DNA of 64,000 bases from an uncultured Ignavibacteria bacterium (lineage in GTDB: Bacteria > Zixibacteria > MSB-5A5 > DSPP01). Made by a program: the position numbers and the translations under genes. How positions within the stretch are numbered: the stretch's first letter is position 1; every line of letters starts with the position of its first letter. The stretch spans positions 4,301-68,300 of the forward strand of contig CAZSIT010000012.1 in assembly GCA_964607165.1 (NCBI GenBank), in the 5' to 3' direction. Of this stretch, positions 3,450 through 36,488 are shown piece after piece. Under the pieces are notes generated by a model, which was not told the DNA's origin, ran no database searches, and worked only from the letters and a program-made list of their open reading frames with translations.

Positions 3450-4177
3450 TGCCGCTTTCCAAAGCTGAAATCCAAAAAATTTTAGAGGAGAACAAAAACC
3501 ACCGCTGCCCGGACGAGGCGCTTTGCGTGCGGATAGTTGCCATGGCCAATCTTCCTTCCCGTTTCGGGCAGTTTCAAGTGGTCGCTTTTCACAACAACTT
3601 TGACAATCTGGATCACGCCGCCTTTCTGGCGGGCGATGTTTACGGCACTGAAAACGTTCCAGTTCGCCTCCATTCCGAATGTTTAACGGGTGATGTGGTC
3701 GGTTCTTTGCGCTGCGACTGCCGGGACCAGTTGGAAGGAGCCTTGCGCCATATTGGGGAAAAAAACTTCGGTGTTCTGCTCTATTTGCGTCAAGAGGGGA
3801 GAGGGATTGGGCTTTCCAACAAAATTAAAGCGTATGCTTTGCAGGAAGATGGCCTGGATACCGTCGATGCCAACCTGGCGCTCGGTTTTCGGGAAGATGA
3901 GCGGGATTACGGGATTGCGGCGCATATGCTCTATTCGCTCAAAATTCGTTCCATCAAATTGTTGACCAACAATCCGGAAAAAATCAAGCAGCTGACGGCT
4001 TTGAAAGTTAAAGTCGTGGAGCGGGTTCCTTTAATCATCCCTCCCAACGAGTTCAACCGGAAGTATCTGGAAACCAAGGCCGAGCGAGCGGCGCATCTTT
4101 TGGGCGACAAAAGCTCTTTGCGTTTTTTAGAGCAGATGGACGAGCTTTTGGTGGATGAGGATGGGAAATCGGGTTGA
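3449..4177 (+). CDS. ribA: GTP cyclohydrolase II
   Basis: VRLHSECLTGD..SLRCDC, QEGRGIGL, KIKAYALQ, LLTNNPEK. Confidence 0.93.
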   Translation: MPLSKAEIQKILEENKNHRCPDEALCVRIVAMANLPSRFGQFQVVAFHNNFDNLDHAAFLAGDVYGTENVPVRLHSECLTGDVVGSLRCDCRDQLEGALRHIGEKNFGVLLYLRQEGRGIGLSNKIKAYALQEDGLDTVDANLALGFREDERDYGIAAHMLYSLKIRSIKLLTNNPEKIKQLTALKVKVVERVPLIIPPNEFNRKYLETKAERAAHLLGDKSSLRFLEQMDELLVDEDGKSG

Positions 4178-4407
4178 CATAATTCCCCGGAGCAGCCCTT
4201 CGACTACGTTTGGGATAAAAAGCCCCTGGGCTACCCATTCGTGGTAATGGTTTTGATAGCGGAGATATTCAGGCCTCCGGTTTTGTGTGAGATATAGTTA
4301 CTATTAATAATTTGAGGATGGAAACCTTCCTCGACTTCGCTCGGAACAAGTAAAGGTTTACGCTACCCATAAGATACAAAAAAAGGCACGGCAGGAATTT
4401 CTCGATT

Positions 4408-6024
4408 TCAGACCTGCAATTGTCTTTTGCGGCCAACGGCCGCGAGTCCCAATAGAATGGCGGAAACGAGCAGAAAAATCGCAGGCATATTGGAAGCAAT
4501 GGCTTGGGGCGTTACGCCCATAAAGTCCAGAAGGGGAAGTTTGTTGACGGGGCCGACGTACCAAATAATCAGATAAACCACTTCGAACAACTTGCTTGTT
4601 CCGCTCCAAACCCCGAGGGACAAAGCCAGGGAGGGAATAAACAGCGCGCCGACCAGCCAGCCCGCAAAGCTTACCGCCTCCCCGGACAGAAGAAAATGCA
4701 ACCCGGCACCGGCGCCGGTCAAGAGCGTCACGATGAAGCCGGCGGCCCACAGGGCGGGGAGCTGGCGCTTCAAGGGAAAAGGGGTGGAAAAAAGAAGCTG
4801 GTCAGTACGATGGTACGTTTCTTTTGTTCCGATTGGAGACCAGATTAAAATGGGCCAGACCCAGGCGATGGGGAAAAGGACGGCGCGCACGGCACCAAGG
4901 GGAGCAAAAAGAGAAGCCACGGACAAGCCTGCCGCCACAACCAGCCACCACCAACGCATATCTTTGCGCATCAGGCGCAGTTCGCCCAAAAGAAGGGGCC
5001 AAAAGTTCATTCGCAGTGCTCCGTTTACAAGCGGCGTGAGCGATACGGGAAGCGCTGCGGGTGCCGGAACGGCCGTACTTTCCGATTGAGAATTTTCCCG
5101 CTTTTTTTCCTTTGGCGTTTTGGCCTGCGAGCCGAAGCGGTCAAAGAAAAGCGAGGAGAGGAGCGTAAGCACAAAAGCGACGCCGAACCAGAACAGACGT
5201 CCGAGAAGAATTTCCGGCGTCCAGTTTACGCCTTCCCAGACAAAGGTGGTGAGGGGAGCGCCCTTGTTCGCGTCCAAATCGAAACGATAACCCAAGCTGA
5301 AAGAGCCATCGTAGCCGGGTAAGGCGGCGCGGGCGGCGGCCTGCATACCCGCCAGCGGGATGCTGACGCCCAAAAAATCGTAAAAGGGGGTTTGAATCAA
5401 CGCGCCCTGTTGGCGGGAGAGCGGAATCATAAGGGAGCCGAGTAAGCCGTTCCAGAGAAAGTAATACGCCACATTCCCCAGTCCGCCTTTGAGGGGGCGA
5501 ATCGACTCGAACAGCACGGCCAAGGCGGCAACCACACCCATCACAGGCAAGACGATAATAAGGAACGGAGCGACCAGGAGCCAGGGGCGAATGTGCATAT
5601 CCTCCCCGCGCAAAAGCTGCATTCCGGCGGCAATTAGAATCAGAGCAAGTATCATCGAAGATAGAACGGCAAAGTTGCTGAGCGCTTTTCCGAGGAGGTA
5701 AAGATGCTTCTGTATCGGAGTGGCCGCCAGAATTTGGCCAACTCCGGTTCTTTCGTCCCGGGCGACGGCGTTCTTGACCAAGTAAAAACCGAAAAGAGAG
5801 AGGAAGACGACGCACATTGCCGCCATGTTTCCTCCGACCCAGGCGGAGTTGTAAATGCCACGGCTGTCGCCCATCGTGATGGTTTTGTAAATGGCGTCGG
5901 GCGGGGGCAGGAAGGTGTAGCCGAGGTAGGCGGTGGCGGCCAGCAAAATCAAAAGGCCGGGACGCCGGACGCGCTCCAGAAAATCGGCGCGGGCCAAATG
6001 ATAGAGTAGATAAAATGTTTTCAA
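4408..6024 (-). CDS. ABC transporter permease
   Basis: Multi-TM protein with RDERTGVGQILAATP..YLLGK motif; overlaps the ATPase gene. Confidence 0.8.
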   Translation of the reverse strand: MKTFYLLYHLARADFLERVRRPGLLILLAATAYLGYTFLPPPDAIYKTITMGDSRGIYNSAWVGGNMAAMCVVFLSLFGFYLVKNAVARDERTGVGQILAATPIQKHLYLLGKALSNFAVLSSMILALILIAAGMQLLRGEDMHIRPWLLVAPFLIIVLPVMGVVAALAVLFESIRPLKGGLGNVAYYFLWNGLLGSLMIPLSRQQGALIQTPFYDFLGVSIPLAGMQAAARAALPGYDGSFSLGYRFDLDANKGAPLTTFVWEGVNWTPEILLGRLFWFGVAFVLTLLSSLFFDRFGSQAKTPKEKKRENSQSESTAVPAPAALPVSLTPLVNGALRMNFWPLLLGELRLMRKDMRWWWLVVAAGLSVASLFAPLGAVRAVLFPIAWVWPILIWSPIGTKETYHRTDQLLFSTPFPLKRQLPALWAAGFIVTLLTGAGAGLHFLLSGEAVSFAGWLVGALFIPSLALSLGVWSGTSKLFEVVYLIIWYVGPVNKLPLLDFMGVTPQAIASNMPAIFLLVSAILLGLAAVGRKRQLQV

Positions 6025-6905
6025 TTGCTCTGTTCGGAACGGCTTTTGGAGATGAAATACAAGTAAGCGTCCTCCAGCGTGGGGGAGGCCGATTGAGCCC
6101 CGGCTGCCGGCGTGGAATCTGCCACTACGCGCAGGTGCAGGCCATCGGAACGGCGGGTAGTGCCGCTAATCAGGTGCTTTTGCTTTACTTCCGGCAGGTT
6201 TTCGCTGGGGATTACCCACTCCCAGACTTTTCCTTCCACTGCTTGTAAAAGCTTTTCGGGGGAGGCACAGGCCAATAAACGGCCATGGGAAATGAGGGCA
6301 ATCTGGGTGGCGGCGGCCTCCACATCGGAAACGATGTGGGTGGAAAGAATGACGATGCGCTCGCCGGAAAGTTCGGAGAGCAGGTTGCGGAAGCGGACGC
6401 GCTCTTCGGGGTCCAAACCGGCGGTGGGCTCGTCCACAATCAGAAGTTTGGGGTCGTTCAACAACGCCTGCGCAATTCCGAGACGCTGTTTCATACCGCC
6501 GGAAAAGCCGCCCAAGGGGCGTTTGCGCACATCCGAAAGATTTACCAAAAGCAACAGCTCTTCGATGCGGCGTTTTGATGAAGCTTTATCCAGCCCTTTG
6601 GCGGCGGACAGGTATTCCAGAAACTCGACGGCATCCAGGTTTGGGTAAACGCCAAAGTCCTGCGGGAGGTAACCCAACACCTGGCGCAATTCGTCCGGTT
6701 TCCGCAAGACGTCGGTTTCGTTCCAGCTGACTTTTCCGGTGGTGGGCTTGGTCACGGTGGCCAAGATGCGCATCAAAGTAGATTTGCCGGCGCCATTGGG
6801 ACCCAGAAGGCCCAAGACCCCGGGGGAAAGATTCAGCGTGAACTCGCGCAGGCCCCAATGATTGCCTTTGTAGCGCTTGCCGACCTGCTCAATAGTTAGT
6901 TTCAA
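6021..6905 (-). CDS. ABC transporter ATP-binding protein
   Basis: GPNGAGKS, FSGGMKQR, LIVDEPT, STH. Confidence 0.95.
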   Translation of the reverse strand: MKLTIEQVGKRYKGNHWGLREFTLNLSPGVLGLLGPNGAGKSTLMRILATVTKPTTGKVSWNETDVLRKPDELRQVLGYLPQDFGVYPNLDAVEFLEYLSAAKGLDKASSKRRIEELLLLVNLSDVRKRPLGGFSGGMKQRLGIAQALLNDPKLLIVDEPTAGLDPEERVRFRNLLSELSGERIVILSTHIVSDVEAAATQIALISHGRLLACASPEKLLQAVEGKVWEWVIPSENLPEVKQKHLISGTTRRSDGLHLRVVADSTPAAGAQSASPTLEDAYLYFISKSRSEQSN

Positions 6906-6941
6906 GATCGTGTTTTTCGGATGCCGCTTGGGAAATTTGGG

Positions 6942-7925
6942 TTATTCGATTGTTTTCCAGTTCCCATTTTCCCAAACCTCGATACGGGTGATGGGGTGAA
7001 TTTCCCAGGCGGTTCCGCGCCAGTTTCCGACGCTATGGGCATCGGCGTGGGCGTTATCGAAAAATAACCAGCCGTAAATCCGTACTTTGGTCGGGGGGCG
7101 CAACATATTTCCGTTGTAACCTCCCTTGTAGCTTGCGTATTGTCCCAAATCCGTCTCGGCCCAAGATGTGTGGTTTTCCCCAAACCAGGGAGTTACTTCG
7201 GTTACCACCACCTTGTACCTTTGGTTTTTTGGGTCACCCGCATCGGCGGCAAGCAGTTCAACGTGAAGGTCTTTGCGAGTGGAAGAAGTACAGTTGGTGG
7301 TTTCTTCCGCGCTTCTTTTTACCATCGCAAGATAGCCTTCGGACATCACCGATTTGGATTCCAGGCCTTGAAGGTAGGTTATCGGCTGATCTCCGGCGGG
7401 CAGCGTACGAACGTTTTTGGGAAGGCTTTTCAGCGCCAAGATTTGTTCTATAGTGATGGTTGAATAGGTGCAGGGTATTTCAATCCGGTTTTTTTTCTGA
7501 TTGGTCAGCCGGTAGCCGGTTTGAGAGGCACTCCCTTTGGGAGGACAGATGCTCCAATCGACCGTTAATTGTGAAGGGGTGCAATTCGGCAGTGAAACCG
7601 TCTGGCCAAAGGACGGAATCTCATACGAGACGTCTGCGGGTTGGCTGATTTCTTCTTCGTCTTCTTCTTCTTCGAGAATGACCGTGCAAAGAGATTTGGC
7701 AACATACGCCGTGTGGCCGTCTTTGAGAGCTATCTTATACCAGTAAGGGACGTCTCCTTTTACCGCATAGACATCCCCCTTATTCAAAACCGCCAAGATT
7801 TTGGCATCTGAAGCGGCCGCCTTGCGGGCGTTGGCGTGTTCAACTCGAATCCGTATGGAAGTCACCGCTGCCCAACAGGGGGCGGAGCAGATTATTAAAA
7901 ACAAGAAGATTTTTGCGGCACGCAT
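6942..7925 (-). CDS. secreted SH3b-domain protein with uncharacterised C-terminal domain
   Basis: Signal peptide, SH3b-like ANARKAA..WYKIALKDGHTAYV, acidic linker, C-terminal GWLFFD..WEIHPITRIEV; RBS aggagg. Confidence 0.7.
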   Translation of the reverse strand: MRAAKIFLFLIICSAPCWAAVTSIRIRVEHANARKAAASDAKILAVLNKGDVYAVKGDVPYWYKIALKDGHTAYVAKSLCTVILEEEEDEEEISQPADVSYEIPSFGQTVSLPNCTPSQLTVDWSICPPKGSASQTGYRLTNQKKNRIEIPCTYSTITIEQILALKSLPKNVRTLPAGDQPITYLQGLESKSVMSEGYLAMVKRSAEETTNCTSSTRKDLHVELLAADAGDPKNQRYKVVVTEVTPWFGENHTSWAETDLGQYASYKGGYNGNMLRPPTKVRIYGWLFFDNAHADAHSVGNWRGTAWEIHPITRIEVWENGNWKTIE

Positions 7926-7979
7926 AACCCCTCCTCTTTTTTAGGCGTTTTTGGAAATCTTTTTCAAATCATCCGTTTC

Positions 7980-9251
7980 CTATTTATACCGCACCCAGCG
8001 CACCAGTTCGGGCAGGGTGGGGCGTTTGCCGTACATCAAAATTCCAACGCGGAAAATTTTGGCGGAGAGCCAGCCCATAATCGTTACGCTTAACCCCATT
8101 ATCGTGTAGCTGGCGGCCAGCTGCCAGGCGGGAGGCGGCAGAAAGGAGATGCGCATCATCATCAAGGTGGGTGTGAAAAATGGGATTAAGGAAAGGATGG
8201 TTACCCATCTGGCGGCGGGATTTTGGGCGACAGCGAAACCGATTATGAAGGGCAAAATCATTGTCATCACGATGGGAAAGACAAATTGCTGGACTTCCTG
8301 ATCGGAATTGGAAATGGCTCCCAGGATGGCGAAAAGGGAGGTGAAGAGGAAGTAACCCAAAGCGAGGTAGATGAAGAAATTGACCACCAAAAGCGGGTTG
8401 AAGGCTCTGGAGAGGTCGAAACCAAAAGAAGAAAGGGTTTTGGCCGCCGGAGCGCCTATCACGGCACCCACTATAATCCAGATGAAAATCGAGGTTAGGG
8501 TGGCGGAGCCCAAACCGACAATTTTCCCCATCAACAGCTGGAAGGGGGTCACCGAAGAGGTCAAGACCTCGATGATGCGGGTGTTTTTTTCTTCCACGAT
8601 GGAACGGGCTAACATCACGCCGTATCCCAAAACGGACTGGAATAAAACAAAAATGAAAAAGAAAGAGAGCAGATAGGTTGAAATGAAACTCGATTCTTTG
8701 GCTCCCTTTTCGGACACCTGCAGCGCTTTTAAGTCGGCGCGCTTCAAGACCTCGGAAAGATTTTTGGCTTGAAAGCCTTGAACTTCCAGCCGGTGGGCGA
8801 TGACCACGTTGTTTATTCTTCTTTCCAATCTGTTCTGCGTTATGAAGTTGCCCAGTGATTTGGCGTAATACTCGGCGGACTGACCGGTGTCAATTTTCTC
8901 CGGAATTATGACATAGGCGCTGATATTTTCAAGTAGCACATCCCGGTTCAGCCCTTCTTTATCCCTTGGAAACGTGGAAGGATTATACGGTTTTTGGGAA
9001 AGCAGGACGGCCTTGGTGCCGTCGGAGAGGGTATCTTTGCTTAGGGCACTGTCCAATCGGGAATAGAGCCAGCCGGTCTGGTCGATGGCCGTCAGTTTGA
9101 GCTGGGGCTCTTTGGTTTTTTGGATTAGAATGCTGGGGAGAAACATAAAGATAAAGCCCATCAGCGGGGTGAGAATCGTTCCAATGACGAAAGATTTGGT
9201 GCGAACGACTCCCAAGTATTCTTTTTTGAGCACCACCAAAAAGCTTCTCAT
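7980..9251 (-). CDS. ABC-2 type permease (NatB/YhaP-like)
   Basis: SIVEEKNTRIIEVLTSS..LLMGKI; SAKIFRVGILMYGKRP. Confidence 0.9.
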   Translation of the reverse strand: MRSFLVVLKKEYLGVVRTKSFVIGTILTPLMGFIFMFLPSILIQKTKEPQLKLTAIDQTGWLYSRLDSALSKDTLSDGTKAVLLSQKPYNPSTFPRDKEGLNRDVLLENISAYVIIPEKIDTGQSAEYYAKSLGNFITQNRLERRINNVVIAHRLEVQGFQAKNLSEVLKRADLKALQVSEKGAKESSFISTYLLSFFFIFVLFQSVLGYGVMLARSIVEEKNTRIIEVLTSSVTPFQLLMGKIVGLGSATLTSIFIWIIVGAVIGAPAAKTLSSFGFDLSRAFNPLLVVNFFIYLALGYFLFTSLFAILGAISNSDQEVQQFVFPIVMTMILPFIIGFAVAQNPAARWVTILSLIPFFTPTLMMMRISFLPPPAWQLAASYTIMGLSVTIMGWLSAKIFRVGILMYGKRPTLPELVRWVRYK

Positions 9252-10156
9252 TTGACCTCCGAGGTTTTTACCGCCTCGATGAAGATATTGTGCAACGAAG
9301 GCTCCATCAACTCGAATCGGTGTATGCGGCTGCGGGAGGAAATTTCGCGCAGAAGAGATTGCGGGTCGGCACCGTTGGAGAGGCGCACTTCCTTATACGG
9401 GCCGTAGTCATCCACCTTGGCTATGCCGGAAAGGGATGAGAGATAAGTCGAATCTCCTTCCACCGAGATTGCAATCGAGGATTTGCCGTAGCGGCTTTTG
9501 ACTTCTTTCAGCGCCCCATCCAGAATCTTCTGTCCCCGGTTGATTAAACAGATATACTCGCACAATTTTTCGGCGCTGTCCATCTGATGGGTCGAAAAAA
9601 GGATGGTGGAGCCTTTGGCCTTTAATTCGAGGATGATGTCTTTGAGCAAATCCATATTTATAGGGTCTAAGCCGGAGAAAGGTTCGTCCAGTATCAGCAA
9701 TTTCGGCTCGTGCATAACGGTGCAGATGAACTGGATTTTTTGCTGCATTCCCTTGGAAAGCTCTTCCCCTTTTTTCTTGAGCCAGTCGGCCAGCCCGAGC
9801 CTTTCGGTCCACTCCGTGCCACGACGGCGGGCTTCCTTTGGGGAAAGCCCTTTCAGTTCGCCAAAATAGCACAGCAAATCCAGAACTTTCATCTTTTTGA
9901 AAATGCCGCGCTCTTCGGGCAGGTAGCCGATTTGTTTTTTGAATTCTTCGTTAAAATGCAGGCCGCCGATTTCGATTTTGCCTGAATCGGGAATTATGAT
10001 ATTCAATATCATCCGAATCGTAGTGGTTTTGCCGGCGCCGTTCGGCCCCAAAATGCCGTAAATGGAGCCGGCGGGAACTTCCAACGAAAGGGAATCAACG
10101 GCTTTAAAATTGCCGAAGCTTTTAGAAATTGAATCAATTTTTAAGTAGTTATCCAC
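9248..10156 (-). CDS. ABC transporter ATP-binding protein
   Basis: GPNGAGKT, LSKGMQQK, ILDEPFSGLD; GTG start at 10156 after AGGAGG (track starts at 10267). Confidence 0.93.
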   Translation of the reverse strand: MDNYLKIDSISKSFGNFKAVDSLSLEVPAGSIYGILGPNGAGKTTTIRMILNIIIPDSGKIEIGGLHFNEEFKKQIGYLPEERGIFKKMKVLDLLCYFGELKGLSPKEARRRGTEWTERLGLADWLKKKGEELSKGMQQKIQFICTVMHEPKLLILDEPFSGLDPINMDLLKDIILELKAKGSTILFSTHQMDSAEKLCEYICLINRGQKILDGALKEVKSRYGKSSIAISVEGDSTYLSSLSGIAKVDDYGPYKEVRLSNGADPQSLLREISSRSRIHRFELMEPSLHNIFIEAVKTSEVK

Positions 10157-11626: not shown

Positions 11627-12471
11627 TAAACCGCTTCTGGGCCTTTGCCCGGATGGGACGGGTCTGGAATGGTATTCTGGTCGTCGCTTCGGTTCTAATT
11701 GGCGGCTATTTCACGGGAAGTATTACCCCAGGAGTGTGGTTGGGCTCCCTTTCCGCCTTCTTAATTGCCACCGGCGCCTATGCTTTAAACGATTTTTTTG
11801 ACTGGAAAATAGACAAAATCAACAAACCGACCCGGCCAATCTCTGCGGGAGATGTTCCGGCTCGAACCGCTTTGACCTTTGGGCTTTTGGTTGTTCTGGC
11901 GGGAGTCGTAATCTCGTATTTCATAAATACAAAAAGCTTTTTTGCCGCTTTTATCTCCGGCTTTCTGGCAATTCAGTATGCGATGGTTTTCAAGCGGGTG
12001 ATGATTGTCGGGCATATAGTGACTGCTTTTCTTTCGGCCTTTGGCTTTTTGTTTGGTGCCTGGGCTGCGGAAGGGTCGAGAATGACTTTGGCACTCTACG
12101 CTTTTCTATTCGGTTTTCTTTTTCATCTGGGCCGCGAGTTTTTGAAGGCAGCAGAGGATAGGGAAGCGGATTTGGAGGGGGGAGCGAAGACCTTTGCCGT
12201 TTTGACATCGGCCAAGCATTCCGTAATAGTTGCCGCCATCATTTTGGCCATTCTCGGAATTGTGGCGTGGATGCCGTTTTTTACGGAAAATTTTAATTGG
12301 ATTTATTTGATCATTGTCATCTTTGGGATTGATTTGGTTTTTGTATTTCTACTTGTGAGGGCTCTGCGGAATCCAATTCCATCGGTTCTTTCGAAGGTTA
12401 ATTCTTACCTCAAGTGGGAGATGGTGGTGGGGCTTTTGGCGTTGTGGATGGGGAAATACCTCACCCCCTGA
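11623..12471 (+). CDS. UbiA family prenyltransferase (DGGGP-synthase-like)
   Basis: NDFFDWKIDKINKPTRPISAG and REFLKAAEDREADLEGGAKTFA motifs; multi-TM. Confidence 0.8.
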   Translation: MINRFWAFARMGRVWNGILVVASVLIGGYFTGSITPGVWLGSLSAFLIATGAYALNDFFDWKIDKINKPTRPISAGDVPARTALTFGLLVVLAGVVISYFINTKSFFAAFISGFLAIQYAMVFKRVMIVGHIVTAFLSAFGFLFGAWAAEGSRMTLALYAFLFGFLFHLGREFLKAAEDREADLEGGAKTFAVLTSAKHSVIVAAIILAILGIVAWMPFFTENFNWIYLIIVIFGIDLVFVFLLVRALRNPIPSVLSKVNSYLKWEMVVGLLALWMGKYLTP

Positions 12472-13190
12472 CCCCTGGCCGTGGCACGAGGCCACGCCTC
12501 GGGCAGGCCCCTCTCCATTGAATGGAGAGGGGAAGGGCGAATGCCCCTCGACTACGCTCGGGATAAGCCATTCGCCCCTACGAATTTTGTGTTTGTAGGG
12601 GCAGACCTATGTGTCTGCCTTGATGCGAAAACGGGCGAACACATCGGTTCGCCCCTACATACCCCCTGGCACTTCGTGTCTGTCTCCTAAGAAAACGGGG
12701 CAACCACGGGGAGTTGCCCCTACGTTTTCTCAAAAAATAAGGGTTGGTTTGCCTGCCCGAGCCGAGCTCGGCAGCGTGAACCCGCTCCTACGTTGAACGT
12801 GGGGAAAGGGCGAATGCCCCTCGACTACGCTCGGGACAAGCCCGAGGCGGGAAGGGGGGGGCGATGGGTTCGAATTCGCTCACCACAAGTTCATAAATCG
12901 CCCCTACGGTTTTTATGAGCGGGAAAGGGCACGTGACAACGTGCCCCTACGACAGAGACCGACGTTGAAAAAACGGGTTCAATATATTGAACCCCTATGC
13001 AAAGGCGGGGATTAGTGGCGTTGGCCTGTCCGAGCAAGCTCGGAGAGCGGCCAGGAAAACGCCGCCTACGGGTAAACATTCCAAAGAGAGTTTGATTTTT
13101 GGGAGTTGAGTGTATAAGTTTGTATGTTTTTGATTTTGAGAATGGTTCAAATAGATTGAGCATAGTATGGTTCGACTACGCTCACCATTT
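12472..13190. repeat. cluster of REP-like palindromes of several families
   Basis: Repeated ..gcccctac hairpins; cctcgactacgctcggga at ~12545 and ~12818; GCCTG..CCAGG elements at 12474-12508 and 13024-13055. Confidence 0.8.
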
Positions 13191-28007: not shown

Positions 28008-28727
28008 TCAATCCTTCAGCATTGCCTGTTTCTTCCACTTGGCCGGCATTTTTTCGATGGCATATCTCAACGCTGTGCGGGGCATTTCTTTTCCCTGCTT
28101 CATAACATACTGAAAAACTTCTCCGGGAAACTTATTGCTCGCTTCCTTCAACATCCAACCGTAACCCTTCTGAACCAAATCATCTTCATCCCGCAGCAAT
28201 ATACCTGCCGTTTGAAAAACTTCCCGCAAAAGTTTTTTTCTTCGGGCAGATGGAATCAAAGCCACCGCCGCCGCCCTCCGTAGCCATCTGTTTTTCGATT
28301 TAGCCCATTTTTTGGTTTGGGCGGAAAATTCCGGGAATTTCGCGATGAAGTGTCCGAGCGGGTGCACGCACAAATGGTCGCAGGAGCCCCAGCTGTGGAC
28401 GTACTTTTTCAGCCATCTTTCAAAGGTCTTGAAATCTTTCTTTTCATACCGCTTTTGGCATTTGTAAGCCCAGTCAAAAGCAATTGCCCGTTCTTCGCCA
28501 TTTCCGGATTTTAACAGTTCCTCGCACAGCCCAAAAATTTCATCCTTTGGTAAGCTTCGAATTTCCCTGAAGTGTTGGGAGGAAATCTTGCGCAAAATAT
28601 CGGTCCGCAAAACCATCGGCTCCGTCAATTCTTCTTTGTAGAATCGTTGCTCGTTTATTTGGTATTTGGGGTGGGAGTATTTAGAAAGTTCGTTCCTTAG
28701 CTTTTGAGTGATCGTATTTTTGCTCAC
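28008..28727 (-). CDS. DNA alkylation repair protein (AlkD-like)
   Basis: SWGSCD, WAKSKNRWLRRAA, DLVQKGYGWMLKE, RTALRYAIEK. Confidence 0.88.
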   Translation of the reverse strand: MSKNTITQKLRNELSKYSHPKYQINEQRFYKEELTEPMVLRTDILRKISSQHFREIRSLPKDEIFGLCEELLKSGNGEERAIAFDWAYKCQKRYEKKDFKTFERWLKKYVHSWGSCDHLCVHPLGHFIAKFPEFSAQTKKWAKSKNRWLRRAAAVALIPSARRKKLLREVFQTAGILLRDEDDLVQKGYGWMLKEASNKFPGEVFQYVMKQGKEMPRTALRYAIEKMPAKWKKQAMLKD

Positions 28728-28748
28728 GGCATTTCATTGAAAAAAAAA

Positions 28749-28854
28749 TAGCCCCACGGGGAGTCGAACCCCGGTTTGCCTGCCCGAGCCGACCGCTCGT
28801 GTCGGCCAGGGATGGCTAAGAACCACCCGTCCTGGGCCACTGGACAATGGGGCC
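28749..28854 (-). tRNA. tRNA-Glu-derived copy with CTT (Lys) anticodon and a 33-nt insertion in the variable region (possible pseudo-tRNA)
   Basis: Identical to 30992-31064 except 3 substitutions and the insert at 28778-28810; stems still pair. Confidence 0.6.
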
Positions 28855-28872
28855 GGTGTAGGCCACGCTGGG

Positions 28873-30930
28873 CTAAAGCCAGTCATAGAAATACTTAAAG
28901 GCATATCCCAAGTAGCAGTAGCGAACAAATCGAGCGGCGGCGACGGTTACGTAAAAAAGCAGCGCCGAATAGCGTTTAAGGCCGCAGACAACGTAGAAAA
29001 CATCGCAGGGAATAGGGGAAGCAGTGCCCAGAAAGAGAAAAAAGGTGATGGCCTTCATCGACCGGCCTTCCGCCCAGGGATGCTTTCCCGCGTTCGGAAA
29101 CCGGTTTTTGACAAACTGGGTTCGGCCCAAATAACGTCCCATCATAAACGTTCCGAACGAACCCAGAGCCGCTCCCAGGGCCATCACAAGGGCCAGATGA
29201 AAGACGTTATATCCCATCGCCACTCCGCCCGCCGCATAACCCCAGATCGGCAGCGGCAGGAGGGTGCTGGAAATGGCACAGAGCAAAAAGAGAACCAAAT
29301 CGACCCCCTTCTGTCCGTGCCGCTCCATCAAAGCGAGGCCAAAACGGTGGATATCCGTTTGGAACATTCCAACCAGGATGATGCCGGTTACAATTATTCC
29401 CAGCGTGACCGCCAGGGAGGCGTATTTGTTTTGATTCTTTTTGGTACTCGCTTCCGCCGGGTCAGGCGCCGGCTCGGTTGATGAGGTCGGCGGCGTTCCC
29501 GGCCGGGCGGCGCCGACTATGTCGAGCGGTTCGCCATCCAGAGGGACGGACGCCTGTTTGCCGGTCAAGGCCAGAATGGTCGGCATCAGGTCGCAGTTGG
29601 ATACTCGTTCGTTGGCGAAGGGAACGCTGAAGGCAAGCGGCACCTGCATATGCTCGCGGTGCAGCGAACCGTGGGAGCTTTTGTGCTCCGGATATTCGAA
29701 TTGATATCTCAAATCGTATCCCGGTTCGGCGCTCAAAATTAGATCCCCACTGCGCGGGCTGACAAAAAGTTTCTGCAGTTGGTTGACGGCATCCGGATAG
29801 GTGTCGTCGAACGTCGCGTGGAAAAGGTCGCGTGAGCTGAACCGTCCGGCAGGATGCTCTTTCAGCGGGCAGGCTCCGTCGATAGTAATGTCGAAATTGC
29901 CGTTGTTTTTGGCGGCGGTCAATCGCCCTTCTTTTCCCACAACGGCAATGCCGTCGCTTCCGTGCCGAGCGGCCGCAAACGAGACCCCTTCGGTATGTAC
30001 CAGCCGCTTTAACAGCTTGCCTACCCGCTTGTCCTTGGCCATCTCTGCATAGCTCCAGTGTGCTCCCCATCGGTTTCCATGCTTGAAGTAAAGCTGCGCC
30101 ATTCCGTTTCCGCTTTCCATAACGGCGCTGTCGTTTTGGCGCCGGTACAATTTGGGATACCGAAAGGGATCAAACCCCTCCTCTTTCAGGATATCCACTA
30201 CGGGAATGTGAACGGCGGTGGCACTCAGCCCGTGGTCGGAGACGAGCGCCAGAATGGTCTCGTCGTAAGTGCCCGTTTCTTGCAGGGCAGCGGCGATTTT
30301 CCCCGCGGCTTCGTCGATGCGGACATAGGCGTCGATTGTCTTTTCGTGAAAGGGACTGTATAGATGGGAGCATTTGTCGATGCCGTAGAACTGCACCACC
30401 AGGCAGTCGCTGCCGGCCCGGATGCGCTGGATGGTAATCCGTTCGGCCATTCGGTCCTGGAGGCCGGAATTTCTGGTTTGGTGCGTCCGAAAAATGTGAT
30501 AGAGCCTGCGAAAAATCTGTTTGTACAGTTTCTTGTTGCGGCAAAAATCGACCGGTTCAAAAATGCAACTCGGTTTGTCAAAATACTCAAAGAGAGAAGT
30601 CGATTTTTCGGGGTGCATATCGCGCCCCATAAACAGGCCAAACGGGCTGTTCAGGCTGCGGTGGCGGCTGAAACTTGGCAGGGTGGAATCGTGCGTTCTC
30701 CGGCAGAGCCAGCGGTATCCAGGCACGTTGGCTGTGCCGGGGTGAAGGCCGGAGACAAAAGGGATATGGGCCGGGCCGGTGGTGCTGGGGAAGACCGATA
30801 AAGCGATTCGGAAACAGCCGCGGTCAACCAGATGTTTCTTAATTTTGGGCAGGCGGCCGCTTAAAAGCAGCCCGTGCATCAGGTCGGCGCGAGCCCCGTC
30901 AGCGACTATGAGAACACAGCGTTTAAACAA
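28873..30930 (-). CDS. alkaline-phosphatase-superfamily nucleotide pyrophosphatase/phosphodiesterase fused to a C-terminal VTT/DedA domain
   Basis: IVADGAR, FPSTTGPAH, DKCSH, VSDHG, HGSLH; C-terminal TMs with GAALGS..MGRYLG, PIPCD, ARFVRY; TTG start inferred from the RBS. Confidence 0.8.
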   Translation of the reverse strand: MFKRCVLIVADGARADLMHGLLLSGRLPKIKKHLVDRGCFRIALSVFPSTTGPAHIPFVSGLHPGTANVPGYRWLCRRTHDSTLPSFSRHRSLNSPFGLFMGRDMHPEKSTSLFEYFDKPSCIFEPVDFCRNKKLYKQIFRRLYHIFRTHQTRNSGLQDRMAERITIQRIRAGSDCLVVQFYGIDKCSHLYSPFHEKTIDAYVRIDEAAGKIAAALQETGTYDETILALVSDHGLSATAVHIPVVDILKEEGFDPFRYPKLYRRQNDSAVMESGNGMAQLYFKHGNRWGAHWSYAEMAKDKRVGKLLKRLVHTEGVSFAAARHGSDGIAVVGKEGRLTAAKNNGNFDITIDGACPLKEHPAGRFSSRDLFHATFDDTYPDAVNQLQKLFVSPRSGDLILSAEPGYDLRYQFEYPEHKSSHGSLHREHMQVPLAFSVPFANERVSNCDLMPTILALTGKQASVPLDGEPLDIVGAARPGTPPTSSTEPAPDPAEASTKKNQNKYASLAVTLGIIVTGIILVGMFQTDIHRFGLALMERHGQKGVDLVLFLLCAISSTLLPLPIWGYAAGGVAMGYNVFHLALVMALGAALGSFGTFMMGRYLGRTQFVKNRFPNAGKHPWAEGRSMKAITFFLFLGTASPIPCDVFYVVCGLKRYSALLFYVTVAAARFVRYCYLGYAFKYFYDWL

Positions 30931-30991
30931 CCTGTCTCCTCGACAACTCGTCCGAAGGTTTGGTGTTGTGCCCGGGTGAGCTGGCAATTAA

Positions 30992-31064
30992 TAGCCCCAC
31001 GGGGAGTCGAACCCCGGTTTGATGGCTGAGAACCACCCGTCCTGGGCCACTAGACGATGGGGCC
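30992..31064 (-). tRNA. tRNA-Glu(CTC)
   Basis: GGCCCCA acceptor, anticodon arm GGTGG-TTCTCAG-CCATC, T-arm CGGGG-TTCGACT-CCCCG; CCA not encoded. Confidence 0.93.
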
Positions 31065-31087
31065 AAAGTTTTCACAACGGCAGTGGG

Positions 31088-31116
31088 AATTTAGTTTTTA
31101 GATGGTGGGCTGTCAA
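31088..31116 (-). promoter_or_regulatory. sigma70 promoter P1 for tRNA-Glu
   Basis: TTGACA-17-TAAATT on the minus strand. Confidence 0.7.
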
Positions 31117-31213
31117 CCACAGGATTTGACCCCTCCCTTAATCCCTCCCCTCAAGGGGAGGGAAAAAATGGAAAAAGAGGATGAGGCCAGAGTTTTCACC
31201 AAAGGCAAAACGG

Positions 31214-31242
31214 AATTTAGGTTTTTCGCTGAACGGTGTCAA
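31214..31242 (-). promoter_or_regulatory. duplicated sigma70 promoter P2
   Basis: Second TTGACA-17-TAAATT within a degenerate tandem copy of the tRNA upstream region. Confidence 0.6.
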
Positions 31243-32366: not shown

Positions 32367-32476
32367 GGACGTCGAAATCGCCAACAAAAAACGCAGGATA
32401 CGCTCCGCAGGGCGGAGCTTTATCCCTGGCCGAAAACCGGCACGGGCAGGCCTGCGCCACGGTAACAAATACGGGA

Positions 32477-35400
32477 TTATTTGGTTTTGTTTAAGAAACT
32501 TCTTGAAATCTCCTTGTCTTCTTTTTCCCAGATAAATGGCTTGAAGCGTTTTTTTGTCGGCGCTAATTCGTCCAGTGTATTGCCATCGAACAGTTCGCCG
32601 TTTTTGATGACGTAGCGAACGGTGTTGGAGTTGTGGATGTCATCCAGAGGATTTTTGTCCAAAACCAGCAAGTCGGCGACCTTGCCCGGCTCAACCGAAC
32701 CCAAATCGTTTTGCAGGCCCAAGCATTCCGCGCCGGTCAAGGTGGCGCAGTGCAGGGCCTGGTGATTGGTCATTCCCTCAGCCATCATCCAGAGCTCCCA
32801 GTGGGCGCCGAGTCCCTGCTGTTCTCCGTGCGCGCCCAAACAGACGTTGCCGCCCCGTTTCACCACATCACCCGCCCCTTTGGCAACCAAAGGATAGTGG
32901 TATTCTTCTTCCAAAAGGAGCACACGGCGGCGGGATTTGCGGTCGATTTCCTCGTGCGAGGTAAAGCGGCGCAGCTTGGCGTCGTCGTGAATATTATATT
33001 TCTGGCGCTGCAGATACTGGCCAAATTCTCCGCCGTAGGATACAATTAAGGTCAATGTCCAATAGGTTTTGGCTTGGGCGATGAACTCGGTTACGTCTTT
33101 ATACAAAGGCACGAGCGGCAGGGAATGTTCAAAGCCGGTATAGCCATCCTGAACCATCGACAAATCGACTTTCAAATCCCCGCCCCCTTCGGCGGTGACG
33201 TTGATGCCGACTTCCTTGGCGGCCATAATCAGCCACTGGCGCTGGATGCGGCGGGATTGCATATACTCCTTTAAGCGCACCGCGCCCGCTTCCTTGTAGC
33301 GGCGGACGTGATGTTTGGCTTCCTCCAAAGAATTCCAGCGCACCTGCAGGGTGTACATCGCTGTTCCCGTGGAATAAATGCGCGGAGCTATCAAATCGCC
33401 GGTTTCGACCATTTCGGAAGCGGCAAAGACCTGGTCGTTGGCGTTGGAGGGGTCGTGGGTGGTCGTCACTCCATAGGCCAGGTTGGCGGCGTAGGAGGGG
33501 ACTTCGTCCGGGAAAACGTCGGGCTGCGGGCCTAAATGGGCGTGAATGTCTATCAGCCCCGGCATTATGGTTTTGCCGGCGCAGTCAAACTTTTGCGCAT
33601 CGGCAGGAATTTTGACGTTGCCCGAAGGGCCGACGGCGGTTAGGCGGTTGTTTTCTATCAGTACATCGCCCTGCTCAATTACTTCATCGCCTTTCATCGT
33701 GATGATACGGGCGTTGGTCAAAGCGATTTTTCCCTGCGGGATTTCGCGCGGAACTTTCAGTTCGATGGTGAATTTTTCGGGATTGAATTCCGGCTTCTCT
33801 TCCTCTTTCTTGGTTGAATCGGCTTTGGCCGAATCGGCAGCTACTTTAGTCGTATCCGCTTTTTTGGTACTGTCCGATTTTTCCTCTTTTTTCTCGTCTT
33901 TCTTTTTCTCCTCGACGAATTTGGCTTTCACCGAATCGAGCAGCAGGCGGTAGAAGTTGTTGGCGTAGGAGTAGGTTATAGTCCTGCCGCCATCGGCCCA
34001 GTTCAAATAGTAAGCCCCTTCTTTGGTGATCTCCTTAACCGGGAAAGGGCCGTCAGTTGAAATCGTCAACGGGTCGCCGGGCAATTTTGGAAAAGCGCCG
34101 ACGTAGGCGTTGTCTTTCTGCTCATACAAAATCCAGTTGCCGTCCGGGGAAGGAATCACGTCCGCTCCTCCGGTGAAATAGAGATGCGTTTTTTTGTCCA
34201 CTCCGTCCAATCGAATCGAATGAAAGGCGGTGCGGCCTTCGCCGCCGGGAGTGGTGGGGTCGGCTCCCTGCGTATAAAACACGCGGCTGGCATCGGCCTG
34301 CCCGAGTCGAGCTCCGGGCTCGGCCAGGGAATTAAAAAACGGGCGGAGGATTGGGCCGCTCACATTAGTAATAAATTTCGATTCGCCGCCGCCGGACGGC
34401 ATCCAGCGCAGTTCATAAACGTCGGAACCATCCTCCACCAGCCATTCTTTAGCGTGGCCGGCGACATAAACGATTTTGGAGCCGTCCGGAGAAAAGGAGG
34501 GATGGGCGTAGAAACCGGCGTTTGGGGTCAGGCGAACTGATTTTCCTCCGGCAGCTGGAGCTTTGCGGATGTTGCCGCCTTCACCATCCGACCAGCTTAC
34601 ATACAGAATCGAGCGGCCATCGGGCGAAAAGCGGGGATAGTATTCCCGGTCGGCCGATTGGGTCAAACGCCTTGGCTTGCTGACGCGATATGCAAGGCTG
34701 TCCTTTTTCCCGGATATTATCAAATCGGCAATCCAGAGCTTTCCCACACCCGAAAAGAGGATTTTTTTGCCGTCGGGCGATTGGCTGGCCCAGCGCATCT
34801 GGCGCACCTCCAGCGGCCCACTTTTTATCGAGTCGCGTATATAAACAAAAGGGCCCAAAGGAATTTTGGCTATAACTTTGAAAGGAATAATCTCGTCCGT
34901 TTTGGTTGTAACGTTGATTTTGTGAATTTTGCCGCCGTAGGCGAGGATGATATTCTTTCCGTCCGGCGTAAAATTGTATCCCGGTAGCACATCATTGACG
35001 GCGAACCCTTCCTGGTCGTCGCGCTGAATCGGAAGCGCCAGATAGTTTTCTTCGCGGGTTTCGATGTTGCGGAGTTTTAATCCTGTTTTAGCGTCATAAC
35101 GAGTAGCATACGTCAGCCATCTTCCATCCGGCGAAACCACCGGCCGCAGGGCGCCGCCGTAAAGACCGGTTATGGTTTGCACATCGCCGGTTTCCCTGTC
35201 CCAGCGGGCTAACTGGAAGCGGCCGATGTCCACGTTGTAGTTGAAGCGTCCGGCGTGGGTGGAAAAGTAGAGGTAACGCCCATCCGGCGAAAACGAGCCG
35301 GCGGAACAAATCGTTTGATTGTCATCCTTGGTCAGCTGCACACCGGAGCCGCCATCTTTGTGGAACATCCAGAGCTGGATTTTTCGCAAATAGCTTTCGA

Positions 35401-35887
35401 GGGGGTATTCGCCGAATCGGCGAGCAACTATATAGTTTCCATCCGGCGCCCAGGCGGGCCCGGCAAAGTTGTACTTGGTTTCTTTGGTTACGGCACGCGG
35501 CTTCGTCCCATCCGCATTCATAATCCAGACGTTGTCGTTGCCGCTGCGGTCGCTGATAAAGGCGATATATTTGCCATCGGGCGAATACTGGGGCTGGCAA
35601 TCCCAGGGCATTCCGGCGGCAATCGGGGTGGCGTCGCCGCCTTCCATTGGCAGTAAATAGAGGTCGCCCAGCAGGTCGAAGACGATGGTTTTGCCGTCCG
35701 GCGAAACGTCCAAAGATATCCAGGTGCCTTCGTCGGTTTCAAATTCCACCGTCCGTTCCGCTTTGAGCGGGAGTTCGTTGCCGAGCGTATCCTTTTTTTC
35801 TTCCTTTTTGTCCTCCGCCCAAGCGGGGGAAAAGAAGATTAAGCTTAAAGCTATCAATAGTGGTAAAAAGCGAGCAGTTGATTTCAC
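32477..35887 (-). CDS. secreted amidohydrolase with N-terminal PD40/TolB beta-propellers
   Basis: Many SPDG repeats; MPGLIDIHAH, GAHGEQQG, LGSVEPGKVADL; GTG start at 35887 after GGAGGA. Confidence 0.9.
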   Translation of the reverse strand: MKSTARFLPLLIALSLIFFSPAWAEDKKEEKKDTLGNELPLKAERTVEFETDEGTWISLDVSPDGKTIVFDLLGDLYLLPMEGGDATPIAAGMPWDCQPQYSPDGKYIAFISDRSGNDNVWIMNADGTKPRAVTKETKYNFAGPAWAPDGNYIVARRFGEYPLESYLRKIQLWMFHKDGGSGVQLTKDDNQTICSAGSFSPDGRYLYFSTHAGRFNYNVDIGRFQLARWDRETGDVQTITGLYGGALRPVVSPDGRWLTYATRYDAKTGLKLRNIETREENYLALPIQRDDQEGFAVNDVLPGYNFTPDGKNIILAYGGKIHKINVTTKTDEIIPFKVIAKIPLGPFVYIRDSIKSGPLEVRQMRWASQSPDGKKILFSGVGKLWIADLIISGKKDSLAYRVSKPRRLTQSADREYYPRFSPDGRSILYVSWSDGEGGNIRKAPAAGGKSVRLTPNAGFYAHPSFSPDGSKIVYVAGHAKEWLVEDGSDVYELRWMPSGGGESKFITNVSGPILRPFFNSLAEPGARLGQADASRVFYTQGADPTTPGGEGRTAFHSIRLDGVDKKTHLYFTGGADVIPSPDGNWILYEQKDNAYVGAFPKLPGDPLTISTDGPFPVKEITKEGAYYLNWADGGRTITYSYANNFYRLLLDSVKAKFVEEKKKDEKKEEKSDSTKKADTTKVAADSAKADSTKKEEEKPEFNPEKFTIELKVPREIPQGKIALTNARIITMKGDEVIEQGDVLIENNRLTAVGPSGNVKIPADAQKFDCAGKTIMPGLIDIHAHLGPQPDVFPDEVPSYAANLAYGVTTTHDPSNANDQVFAASEMVETGDLIAPRIYSTGTAMYTLQVRWNSLEEAKHHVRRYKEAGAVRLKEYMQSRRIQRQWLIMAAKEVGINVTAEGGGDLKVDLSMVQDGYTGFEHSLPLVPLYKDVTEFIAQAKTYWTLTLIVSYGGEFGQYLQRQKYNIHDDAKLRRFTSHEEIDRKSRRRVLLLEEEYHYPLVAKGAGDVVKRGGNVCLGAHGEQQGLGAHWELWMMAEGMTNHQALHCATLTGAECLGLQNDLGSVEPGKVADLLVLDKNPLDDIHNSNTVRYVIKNGELFDGNTLDELAPTKKRFKPFIWEKEDKEISRSFLNKTK
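34296..34328. mobile_element. 33-bp GCCTG..CCAGG palindromic element inserted in frame
   Basis: Same termini and length as the tRNA insert; removal restores RPFFNSDASRVF. Confidence 0.75.
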
Positions 35888-36488
35888 GATTCCTCCGGGA
35901 TAAATGTTTTTGCGGGTTGGGGCAGGTGTTACTCCTGCCGCCCGCCTGTGGCGGGTCGGAAGTGGTTCGGCTCCACTCACCATAAATAACTCCCGACACA
36001 ACCTGAATCTTTCCTCATCCGATAATTTCATTCAATTCTTTTTAGGCGCGATTCGTTTGCCTTTTTTCATTAACGTTGGGGGAGTATATAAGTTGCGTAA
36101 CGGTGAAACACAAGCTCAAATTGATACGATGTTTTTAAGTGCTGGAATTGAACCCAAACGTCCATTTTTGGCGCGAGACGGCGAAAATTTGTCGCTTTTG
36201 TGAATACTTTTAAGAACGGGTTTTGTTCCGGGATGTGGGATAAGAGGTTGTAGGAATGGTACGGGATTATTCTTGGCACGCAATTTGACCACTATTTTGG
36301 GTAAGCGGGTATGACTGGAGGATATTGAGCTGGTTGGCTATTGGGAAAGCAGTCGTTTTCCATTTAAAAATTTTACTTTTAAAAAAGTTTGCGGGATTGT
36401 GCTTGACAGGCAGGGTTTGAATGTTAAGTTATAGCCCTTTATGAGCTTTTGGATATACGGTTTTTGCGGACTGGAGAAGAGGAGAATT

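Follow-up and report, generated by a model that had tools for sequence, protein, structure and literature searches.

The tRNA-Glu gene and its altered copy

The stretch analysed here (the window) comprises 64,000 nucleotides (nt) of contig CAZSIT010000012.1 (positions 4,301 to 68,300; assembly GCA_964607165.1) from an uncultured Ignavibacteria bacterium that GTDB places in the Zixibacteria. Its genome (G000) spans 2.66 Mb in 61 contigs at 51% GC and encodes 45 tRNAs and a tmRNA. ARAGORN called two tRNA genes in the window, one of which is tRNA-Glu(CTC). Further downstream on the same strand stands a second, altered copy of this gene with the anticodon CTT and a hairpin of 33 nt, hereafter E, in its variable region; a single gene, hereafter the cargo gene, occupies the DNA between the two copies. 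The positions of these and other features are given in Table 1.

Table 1. Features of the window discussed in the text, with positions counted from its first letter.
Feature	Position	Strand	Basis or remark
Intact tRNA-Glu(CTC)	30992..31064	-	ARAGORN 30991-31065; Rfam tRNA model 51.9 bits; ancestral gene with ancestral upstream flank
tRNA-Glu-derived copy, anticodon CTT, full length	28749..28854	-	Downstream direct repeat with ancestral downstream flank
Hairpin E, 33 nt, arms CCTGGCCG ... CTCGGGCAGG	28778..28811	-	Between tRNA positions 43 and 44
Promoter-like site (TTGACA, 17 nt, TAAATT)	31088..31116	-	Consensus scan; upstream of intact tRNA-Glu
Nine-T run, ancestral tRNA terminator tail	28740..28748	-	Directly after the altered copy; T-run of G001 at the same place
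Cargo gene, alkaline-phosphatase-family phosphodiesterase with VTT/DedA-like membrane domain	28873..30987	-	Pfam Phosphodiest 2.9e-26, VTT_dom 5.9e-8
DNA alkylation repair gene, ancestral downstream neighbour	28008..28727	-	Pfam DNA_alkylation 2.3e-53
E copy	12467..12507	+	C12:16767-16807
E-like copy	13025..13055	-	C12:17325-17355
E copy, short form	32425..32450	+	C12:36725-36750
E copy, in frame within PD40 + amidohydrolase open reading frame 32477-36031(-)	34297..34328	-	Pattern search

The original prediction, made by a model from the sequence of the window, had described a full-length tRNA-Glu(CTC) copy lying 2.1 kb downstream of the original on the same strand and differing from it by three substitutions, at position 9, in the D stem and in the anticodon. 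Alignment agreed with it on every count, and both copies were found on the minus strand. All of positions 1-73 of tRNA-Glu are represented in the altered copy, whose two halves match the original with E-values of 1.8e-12 and 5.9e-9. After removal of the insert in silico, global alignment showed exactly three differences over 73 nt, all of them transitions: C>T at linear position 9, T>C at linear position 13, which turns a T.G pair into C-G, and CTC>CTT at linear position 37, the third anticodon base. The body of the copy has thus stayed of the Glu type, with 70 of its 73 positions as in tRNA-Glu(CTC), and in an alignment with the genome's own tRNA-Lys(CTT) it agrees in 45 of 76 columns.

The insert sits at the junction of anticodon stem and variable loop and is uninterrupted; its placement is ambiguous by one C (28778-28810 or 28779-28811). 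By itself it folds at -18.0 kcal/mol. Whether a gene finder accepts the copy depended on this insert. ARAGORN at default settings called no tRNA there, and once the 33 nt had been sliced out in silico it called tRNA-Lys(ctt). The comparison of finder scores with and without the insert, which had accompanied the original prediction, was thereby carried through in part, as ARAGORN calls. When ARAGORN was allowed introns (-i), it proposed a tRNA-Ala(ggc) with a 15-nt intron cut from the real anticodon arm. This candidate was rejected, as its anticodon stem is mismatched; we know of no bacterial mechanism for such an intron. Weak, sub-threshold Rfam matches to mascRNA (23.2 bits) and whalefall-1 (22.2 bits) were taken as chance or tRNA-likeness.

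Flanks of the two copies and origin of the duplication

G001, a genome of the same genus, has one tRNA-Glu(CTC), with the DNA-alkylation-repair gene immediately behind it. The window from 28854 down to 28004 shares 67.6% identity with its G001 counterpart, and the following gene 73%. A four-way alignment showed the G001 flanks divided between the two copies: sequence upstream of the intact one matched the G001 upstream flank, and sequence downstream of the altered one the G001 downstream flank. Both promoter hexamers are conserved upstream of tRNA-Glu in G001 and in G002, another genome of the genus; the consensus scan gave no promoter-like site before the altered copy. As the flanks are split between the copies in the way that the single-tRNA layout of G001 predicts, the duplicate is to be read as an insertion scar. 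We take the duplication to be the direct-repeat pair left by a single-gene insertion of ~2.1-2.2 kb that is specific to the lineage of this genome. As at att-type scars, a direct repeat of tRNA sequence brackets DNA without counterpart in the relatives. G001 and G002 each have one tRNA-Glu, and among 61 genomes only G000 gave a full-length match to the altered copy, so that the comparison with related genomes proposed earlier showed no orthologue in the 60 relatives. Both hexamers recur in another promoter-like site at 31242..31214 (-).

Behind its tRNA-Glu(CTC), G002 carries genes for a TonB-dependent receptor and for DUF5655-like and Exo_endo_phos/LTD proteins, and no DNA_alkylation gene (G002:C17:64000-74000, 3513-9800). 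In three genomes of one genus the neighbour that follows tRNA-Glu is each time a different one, which makes the 3' side of this tRNA a variable spot.

The cargo open reading frame (ORF) encodes 704 amino acids (aa), and its database twin 668 aa. Homologues share 52-73% identity with it; the phylum-named rows among the matches listed were two from Zixibacteria and one from Acidobacteriota. Several homologues come from metagenome-assembled genomes of Zixibacteria, and the full-length ones are ordinary chromosomal genes. Neither G001 nor G002 yielded the cargo gene, and of the 60 relatives G038 alone has a match, restricted to the N-terminal domain. A single-protein scan of genome contigs for the cargo gene returned no relative; profile scans then gave 52 + 19 loci. 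BLAST of the 71 fetched loci found no tRNA-Glu-like or E sequence, and ARAGORN called one unrelated tRNA-Gly in them. GC content of the island is 0.55-0.59, above the genome mean of 0.51, but values of 0.57-0.58 occur elsewhere in the window too, so that the difference does not decide the matter.

Integration of genetic elements at tRNA genes is known to leave partial or duplicated tRNA genes behind (van der Gulik et al. 2023, PMC9897764). The locus is like those cases in that a tRNA-derived repeat brackets DNA without counterpart in relatives and that, besides one canonical copy, there is a non-canonical one which a gene finder may take for an additional tRNA with a different isotype. Unlike them, it repeats the whole tRNA (1-73) rather than its 3' part, shows no integrase match in the largest ORF of the insert and has a hairpin repeat added. 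The caution in the original prediction, that the 3' end of a tRNA is usually all that att duplications copy, was fair.

The history that best accommodates these observations would run as follows. Comparison shows the ancestral order to be promoter, tRNA-Glu(CTC), T-run and DNA-alkylation-repair gene, an order that G001 retains. DNA of ~2.1-2.2 kb with one foreign gene would then have been inserted at the tRNA so as to have a complete tRNA on each side, which is the layout seen today. The simplest route would be a single homologous crossover of the Campbell type, in which the resident tRNA recombined with a homologous stretch of tRNA length on a circular donor. Had it fallen within the 30 nt that are still identical, the clean copy would come to lie upstream with the promoter and all the differences downstream with the old terminator. 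The downstream copy, being redundant and no longer constrained, would afterwards have taken the three transitions and a precise 33-nt E; we call the insertion precise because removal of the 33 nt restores a perfect tRNA in silico.

We also considered that the two-copy layout arose in assembly, or that a free 2.2-kb circle was mis-threaded into the chromosome through the 30-nt repeat. Logan contigs do end at the 30-nt 3' tRNA part common to both copies (28747-28778, 30990-31019), and in the k=31 graph alone integrated DNA and a free circle are indistinguishable. Yet contigs without any difference from the window were present in samples X2 (record 2, 28747-31019) and X3 (28790-30852) and, from a second study, in X5 (28770-29053). 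The contigs of these three samples span the copy, the insert and the neighbouring gene, and the junctions of copy, insert and gene and of gene and intact tRNA are each covered. In X2 and X3 word depth over the island (5.5-5.9) equals that of the flanks (5.9-6.3), and the deposited contig continues through both repeats. Neither an artefact nor a circle is thus at all probable, and the layout proposed at the outset stands. In a further run, X8, which is labelled metatranscriptomic and is probably DNA, a 183-nt contig lies inside the cargo gene at 30191-30366. The same run holds a 211-nt contig over 30991-31044 with three differing letters, probably from the tRNA of another organism.

The position of the altered copy behind the cargo gene suggests a further reading, in which it would be a useful module that does not decode: its tRNA-like fold and the T-run would end or process, through RNase P or RNase Z, a cargo transcript started at the tRNA-Glu promoter. 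The copy begins 18 nt past the cargo stop codon, the scan found no promoter-like site between the intact tRNA and the cargo gene, and nine T follow the altered copy, as they follow the single tRNA of G001, with no T-run after the intact one. One weak terminator-like hairpin was found on the minus strand inside the cargo gene (29758..29746), and none before the cargo gene or the copy. The case for a module is purely positional, however; a terminator needs a 3' stem and a T-run only, not a full cloverleaf, and such a role is compatible with a pseudo-tRNA and does not exclude it. We regard the module as unlikely.

Pseudo-tRNA or working tRNA

The altered copy is probably a pseudo-tRNA, a duplication scar later struck by a mobile hairpin. 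The original prediction had left open whether it was a pseudo-tRNA or a tRNA recruited to read AAG. Our results favour the first branch and give no support to the second: G001 lacks the insertion, the copy is promoterless, its changes fall on invariant positions, E also occurs in dead tRNA fragments, and a canonical tRNA-Lys is present. No result requires a function of the copy; the pseudo-tRNA is the best-supported reading, under which the copy would not decode. It probably keeps one passive role even so: since the T-run no longer follows the intact tRNA, the tRNA-Glu promoter is the likely start of transcription of the cargo gene, and the relic with its T-run the likely end.

The tRNA-Glu(CTC) gene is 100% identical in G000, G001 and G002, against 68-73% nucleotide identity for neighbouring genes. 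Among 29 relatives of the class, 51 of its 73 positions are invariant. Positions 9 and 13 and the anticodon are invariant in all 29, and all three changes sit in the altered copy; they are therefore derived, and the copy lies outside the constraint on tRNA-Glu. The chance that three random changes would all fall on invariant positions is, by our estimate, ~0.34, and the chance that three random transitions would spare the stems ~0.36, which leaves stem-sparing as weak evidence. By these estimates the three changes tell nothing on decay versus change of function.

Several observations speak against a pseudo-tRNA. The 3' 30 nt of the copy are still identical to the original. As had been claimed at the outset, all stems remain pairable: the minimum free energy (MFE) structure from RNAfold for the 106-nt copy is a cloverleaf with a fifth arm formed by the insert (-52.2 kcal/mol), and Rfam RF00005 aligns to it end to end, with the insert placed as a variable-region insertion, at 40.5 bits (gathering score 29; E-value 8.9e-8 with 136 nt searched; in a search of 5.5 kb the copy was missed through the speed filters). 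The three substitutions leave every stem intact and improve one pair. No allele of the copy lacking E was found in the three independent samples X2, X3 and X5. Pfam found no integrase or recombinase in the largest of the overlapping ORFs between the repeats. Finally, in E. coli we take U13.G22, C36 and a short variable loop to be identity elements for glutamyl-tRNA synthetase (GluRS), and a CUU anticodon with A73 presumably suits lysyl-tRNA synthetase (LysRS); on these assumptions the changes would fit a directed identity switch.

Some of these points also belong to the case for a living tRNA, which would be transcribed, processed and charged, by LysRS or by mischarging, and would read AAG with the hairpin as an oversized class-II-like arm. 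The intact cloverleaf, the substitutions that spare every stem, the call of tRNA-Lys(ctt) after removal of the insert, and the discriminator A73 together with anticodon CTT, which presumably fit the rules of LysRS, are all consistent with it. Against it, the covariance model was the one test in which the copy behaved as a functional tRNA; the default gene finder, the range of variable regions and conservation in relatives all point the other way. At 106 nt with a variable region of 37 nt, the copy exceeds the longest tRNA of the genome, the 95-nt tRNA-SeC, and the helix of the insert begins right after position 43 with no spacer. A promoter of its own was not found in the scan, the copy is absent from G001 and G002, its body agrees with the real tRNA-Lys(CTT) in only 45 of 76 columns, and the repeat within it also breaks dead tRNA fragments and occupies dozens of places unrelated to tRNA. 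The search for another tRNA-Lys(CTT) in the genome succeeded: canonical tRNA-Lys(TTT) and tRNA-Lys(CTT) genes stand side by side on contig C5. AAG is therefore already served, and the copy would be redundant. We consider a living tRNA improbable. Slightly more doubtful still is its most specific form, in which the stable tRNA has a CUU anticodon and an extra arm of 33 nt derived from a mobile element. Its GluRS identity would be lost (U13>C, C36>U and the variable region), and LysRS, or seryl-tRNA synthetase (SerRS) acting via the arm, would charge it. If this form were nevertheless true, it would be a bacterial alloacceptor shift in progress with the longest variable arm known in a working tRNA.

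Alloacceptor anticodon shifts, or tRNA remolding, are known (PMC3923123, PMC4783518), and the cases described there are functional, synteny-conserved genes of eukaryotes or mitochondria. The altered copy is like these in being a duplicated tRNA gene whose anticodon has become, by one base, that of another amino acid. It is unlike them in being lineage-specific and promoterless, in carrying a 33-nt repeat and in that the cognate tRNA-Lys(CTT) is already present in the genome; of what marks remolding, the duplicate with a shifted anticodon was found and retention as a working tRNA was not. A long variable arm is characteristic of class II tRNAs (Leu, Ser, Tyr and Sec). The copy resembles them in having an extra helix between anticodon arm and T arm, but the natural long-arm tRNAs of this genome measure 82-95 nt, and its own 37-nt variable region starts from 43/44.

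An insert whose removal restores a perfect tRNA also raises the idea of an intron: the 33 nt would be taken out of the RNA, and the resulting 73-nt tRNA would combine a Glu body with the anticodon CUU. The precision of the insertion is in its favour. The host is bacterial, however (tmRNA and tRNA-SeC are present), and a search of G000 for the archaeal-type splicing endonuclease PF01974 gave 0 matches, with the control positive in four archaea. Moreover, 33 nt is far below the size of group I introns, and E occupies ~66-88 mostly non-tRNA places, once in frame in a protein gene. We hold this reading to be highly improbable.

A pseudo-tRNA of this kind carries a warning for annotation. A covariance model with lax filters calls the copy a tRNA, and if the insert is ignored an extra tRNA-Lys(CTT) results; the context shows a scar.

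The hairpin repeat, its sites and candidate movers

The element-derived insert with paired stems, as originally predicted, was recognised by BLAST and pattern searches as a member of a dispersed hairpin family. Its members measure ~32-36 nt and start with CCCTGG. The arms are conserved and have a C on either side, the centre is variable and self-complementary, and a bulge of 5 nt is conserved as well. The exact pattern occurs 47 times in G000 and 11 times in G002; G001, G003 and G004 gave 0, as did the reversed-pattern control. A relaxed pattern found 88 distinct loci in G000, of which 66 are of high confidence. Most copies sit in the loop of other repeated hairpins. Ten of the 11 exact loci of G002 were fetched and showed the same host repeats and no adjoining GIY-YIG gene; one lies near a tRNA.

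For 12 of the 88 loci a tRNA or tmRNA gene stands no more than 510 nt away, against ~1.7 expected by chance (our arithmetic from 46 genes and the genome size). At four of these places E is flanked by fragments of the adjoining gene. The sequences split in this way are 3' copies of tmRNA (two, partial), tRNA-Leu(taa) (two) and tRNA-Leu(cag) (one), together with a pair of near-complete tRNA-Gly(tcc) pseudo-copies. In each of them E splits the T-loop between positions 57 and 58 with one G common to E and flank, at GGTTCG^A or, in the tRNA-Leu(taa) copies, at GGTTAG^A. The site in the tRNA-Glu copy reads GGTTTG^AT on the opposite strand and likewise shares one base with the flank; by our arithmetic, six bases would agree at a random site with a probability of ~2e-4. 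The intact tRNA-Glu holds the same two sites, both uninterrupted, and at this kind of site E was seen only in redundant tRNA or tmRNA copies and never in the working genes.

From the aligned junctions we infer that E inserts at T-loop-like DNA, GGTTNG^A (N = C, A or T). Its place at the variable-loop junction of tRNA-Glu would then follow, because this junction looks like a T-loop on the other strand. Five tRNA-derived targets suggest that E enters such a motif with one G/C common to the flank, and in tRNA-Glu the motif would be the one on the opposite strand, at the anticodon-stem/variable-loop junction. GGTTNG^A is the universal T-loop sequence of tRNA genes, and an element of 32-36 nt has landed there repeatedly in this genome. 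If the preference is true, E would be a small mobile element whose target is the best-conserved motif of tRNA genes and which is tolerated only in the presence of a spare copy. The tRNA-Glu locus offers a clean pair of filled and empty site, copy versus original, 2.1 kb apart. Neither a hairpin repeat within a full-length duplicated bacterial tRNA nor T-loop-targeted hairpins were described in the literature among the matches listed. The novelty lies more in the hairpin family and its target than in the tRNA copy.

At C4:106361-106982 the two near-complete tRNA-Gly(tcc) pseudo-copies stand upstream of the intact gene. In each the anticodon arm is replaced by a 10-nt mini-hairpin and the T-loop is split by E, in the second with a nested insert. 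An 89-aa GIY-YIG gene and a second, deleted copy of that gene lie between them. At C45:166-551 a tandem pair of tRNA-Val(cac), 97% alike over 62 nt, has E in a host repeat between its members, and the start of the contig holds a 27-nt 3' piece of tRNA-Val(cac).

As to what might move E, we compared two known systems. REP and BIME repeats are associated with RAYT transposases, which are IS200/IS605-like Y1 enzymes (PMC2817692, PMC3337134, PMC3733652). Like them, E is a short imperfect palindrome present in tens of copies, often nested in composite repeats and without a long target duplication. Unlike REP, it has no GTAG or CGTC head and lies within tRNA-derived sequence and once within an ORF, not in intergenic DNA only. 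Nor are intact Y1 transposase genes flanked by E: of five Y1_Tnp (PF01797) matches in G000, the broken one at C30:16861-17112 alone has E within 200 nt (C30:17268).

The second system consists of Ssn proteins, single-domain GIY-YIG nucleases acting on single-stranded DNA, and of NTS/SRM hairpins in an NTS-ssnA-NTS layout, which its authors liken to IS200/IS605, REP and RAYT (Chenal et al. 2025, PMC11893778); tRNA is mentioned 0 times in the main text of that paper. G000 has seven single-domain GIY-YIG genes of 83-104 aa, at least five of them directly beside tRNA or tmRNA genes. As in the Ssn layout, two of the seven have E on both sides (C5:51947 and C4:106472); they are mutual closest paralogues at 46%, and the remaining five are accompanied by other hairpins. 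The likeness links E at two loci to tiny predicted Ssn-like nucleases, recognised here by their genes. Unlike in the published system, the degenerate SRM motif overlaps 0 of the 88 E loci, its 11 matches in the genome being not above those in shuffled sequence, and no GIY-YIG gene lies at the tRNA-Glu locus.

Mini GIY-YIG genes beside tRNA-Ser or other tRNAs, with partial tRNA copies, were also seen at C33:5834-6532, C3:56138-56836, C8:19709-20407 and C28:1-575. On C33 and C8 E is replaced by a hairpin of the type CCCTCGACT ... CTCGGGATAAA, which on C33 interrupts a tRNA-Ser pseudo-copy in its T-loop.

Further copies of E differ in setting and form. In the host repeat 'cagaatgaca / cccagattcttc' E occurs in both orientations at one point (C38:12846-12877 versus C14:3055-3086, C30:21583 and C38:3068), and E would therefore move or flip independently of the host repeat. 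A minimal form at C1:160555-160590, with the arms joined and no central hairpin, lies within a 'ggccgggttt ... caacccggc' host hairpin; E itself may thus be a nested structure. The in-frame copy in the window is read as 12 codons, SLAEPGARLGQA, between the PD40 beta-propeller and amidohydrolase parts of a 1184-aa ORF, and a 90-aa piece around it had no match in G001 or G002. In-frame palindromic elements of this kind resemble those of Rickettsia.

A different hairpin of 40 nt, GC-rich and with weak Rfam matches to whalefall-1 (22 and 19 bits), lies at 31125-31165 of the window. It matches many unrelated short contigs of X2 and X3 with loose ends on both sides, which marks it as another widespread repeat.

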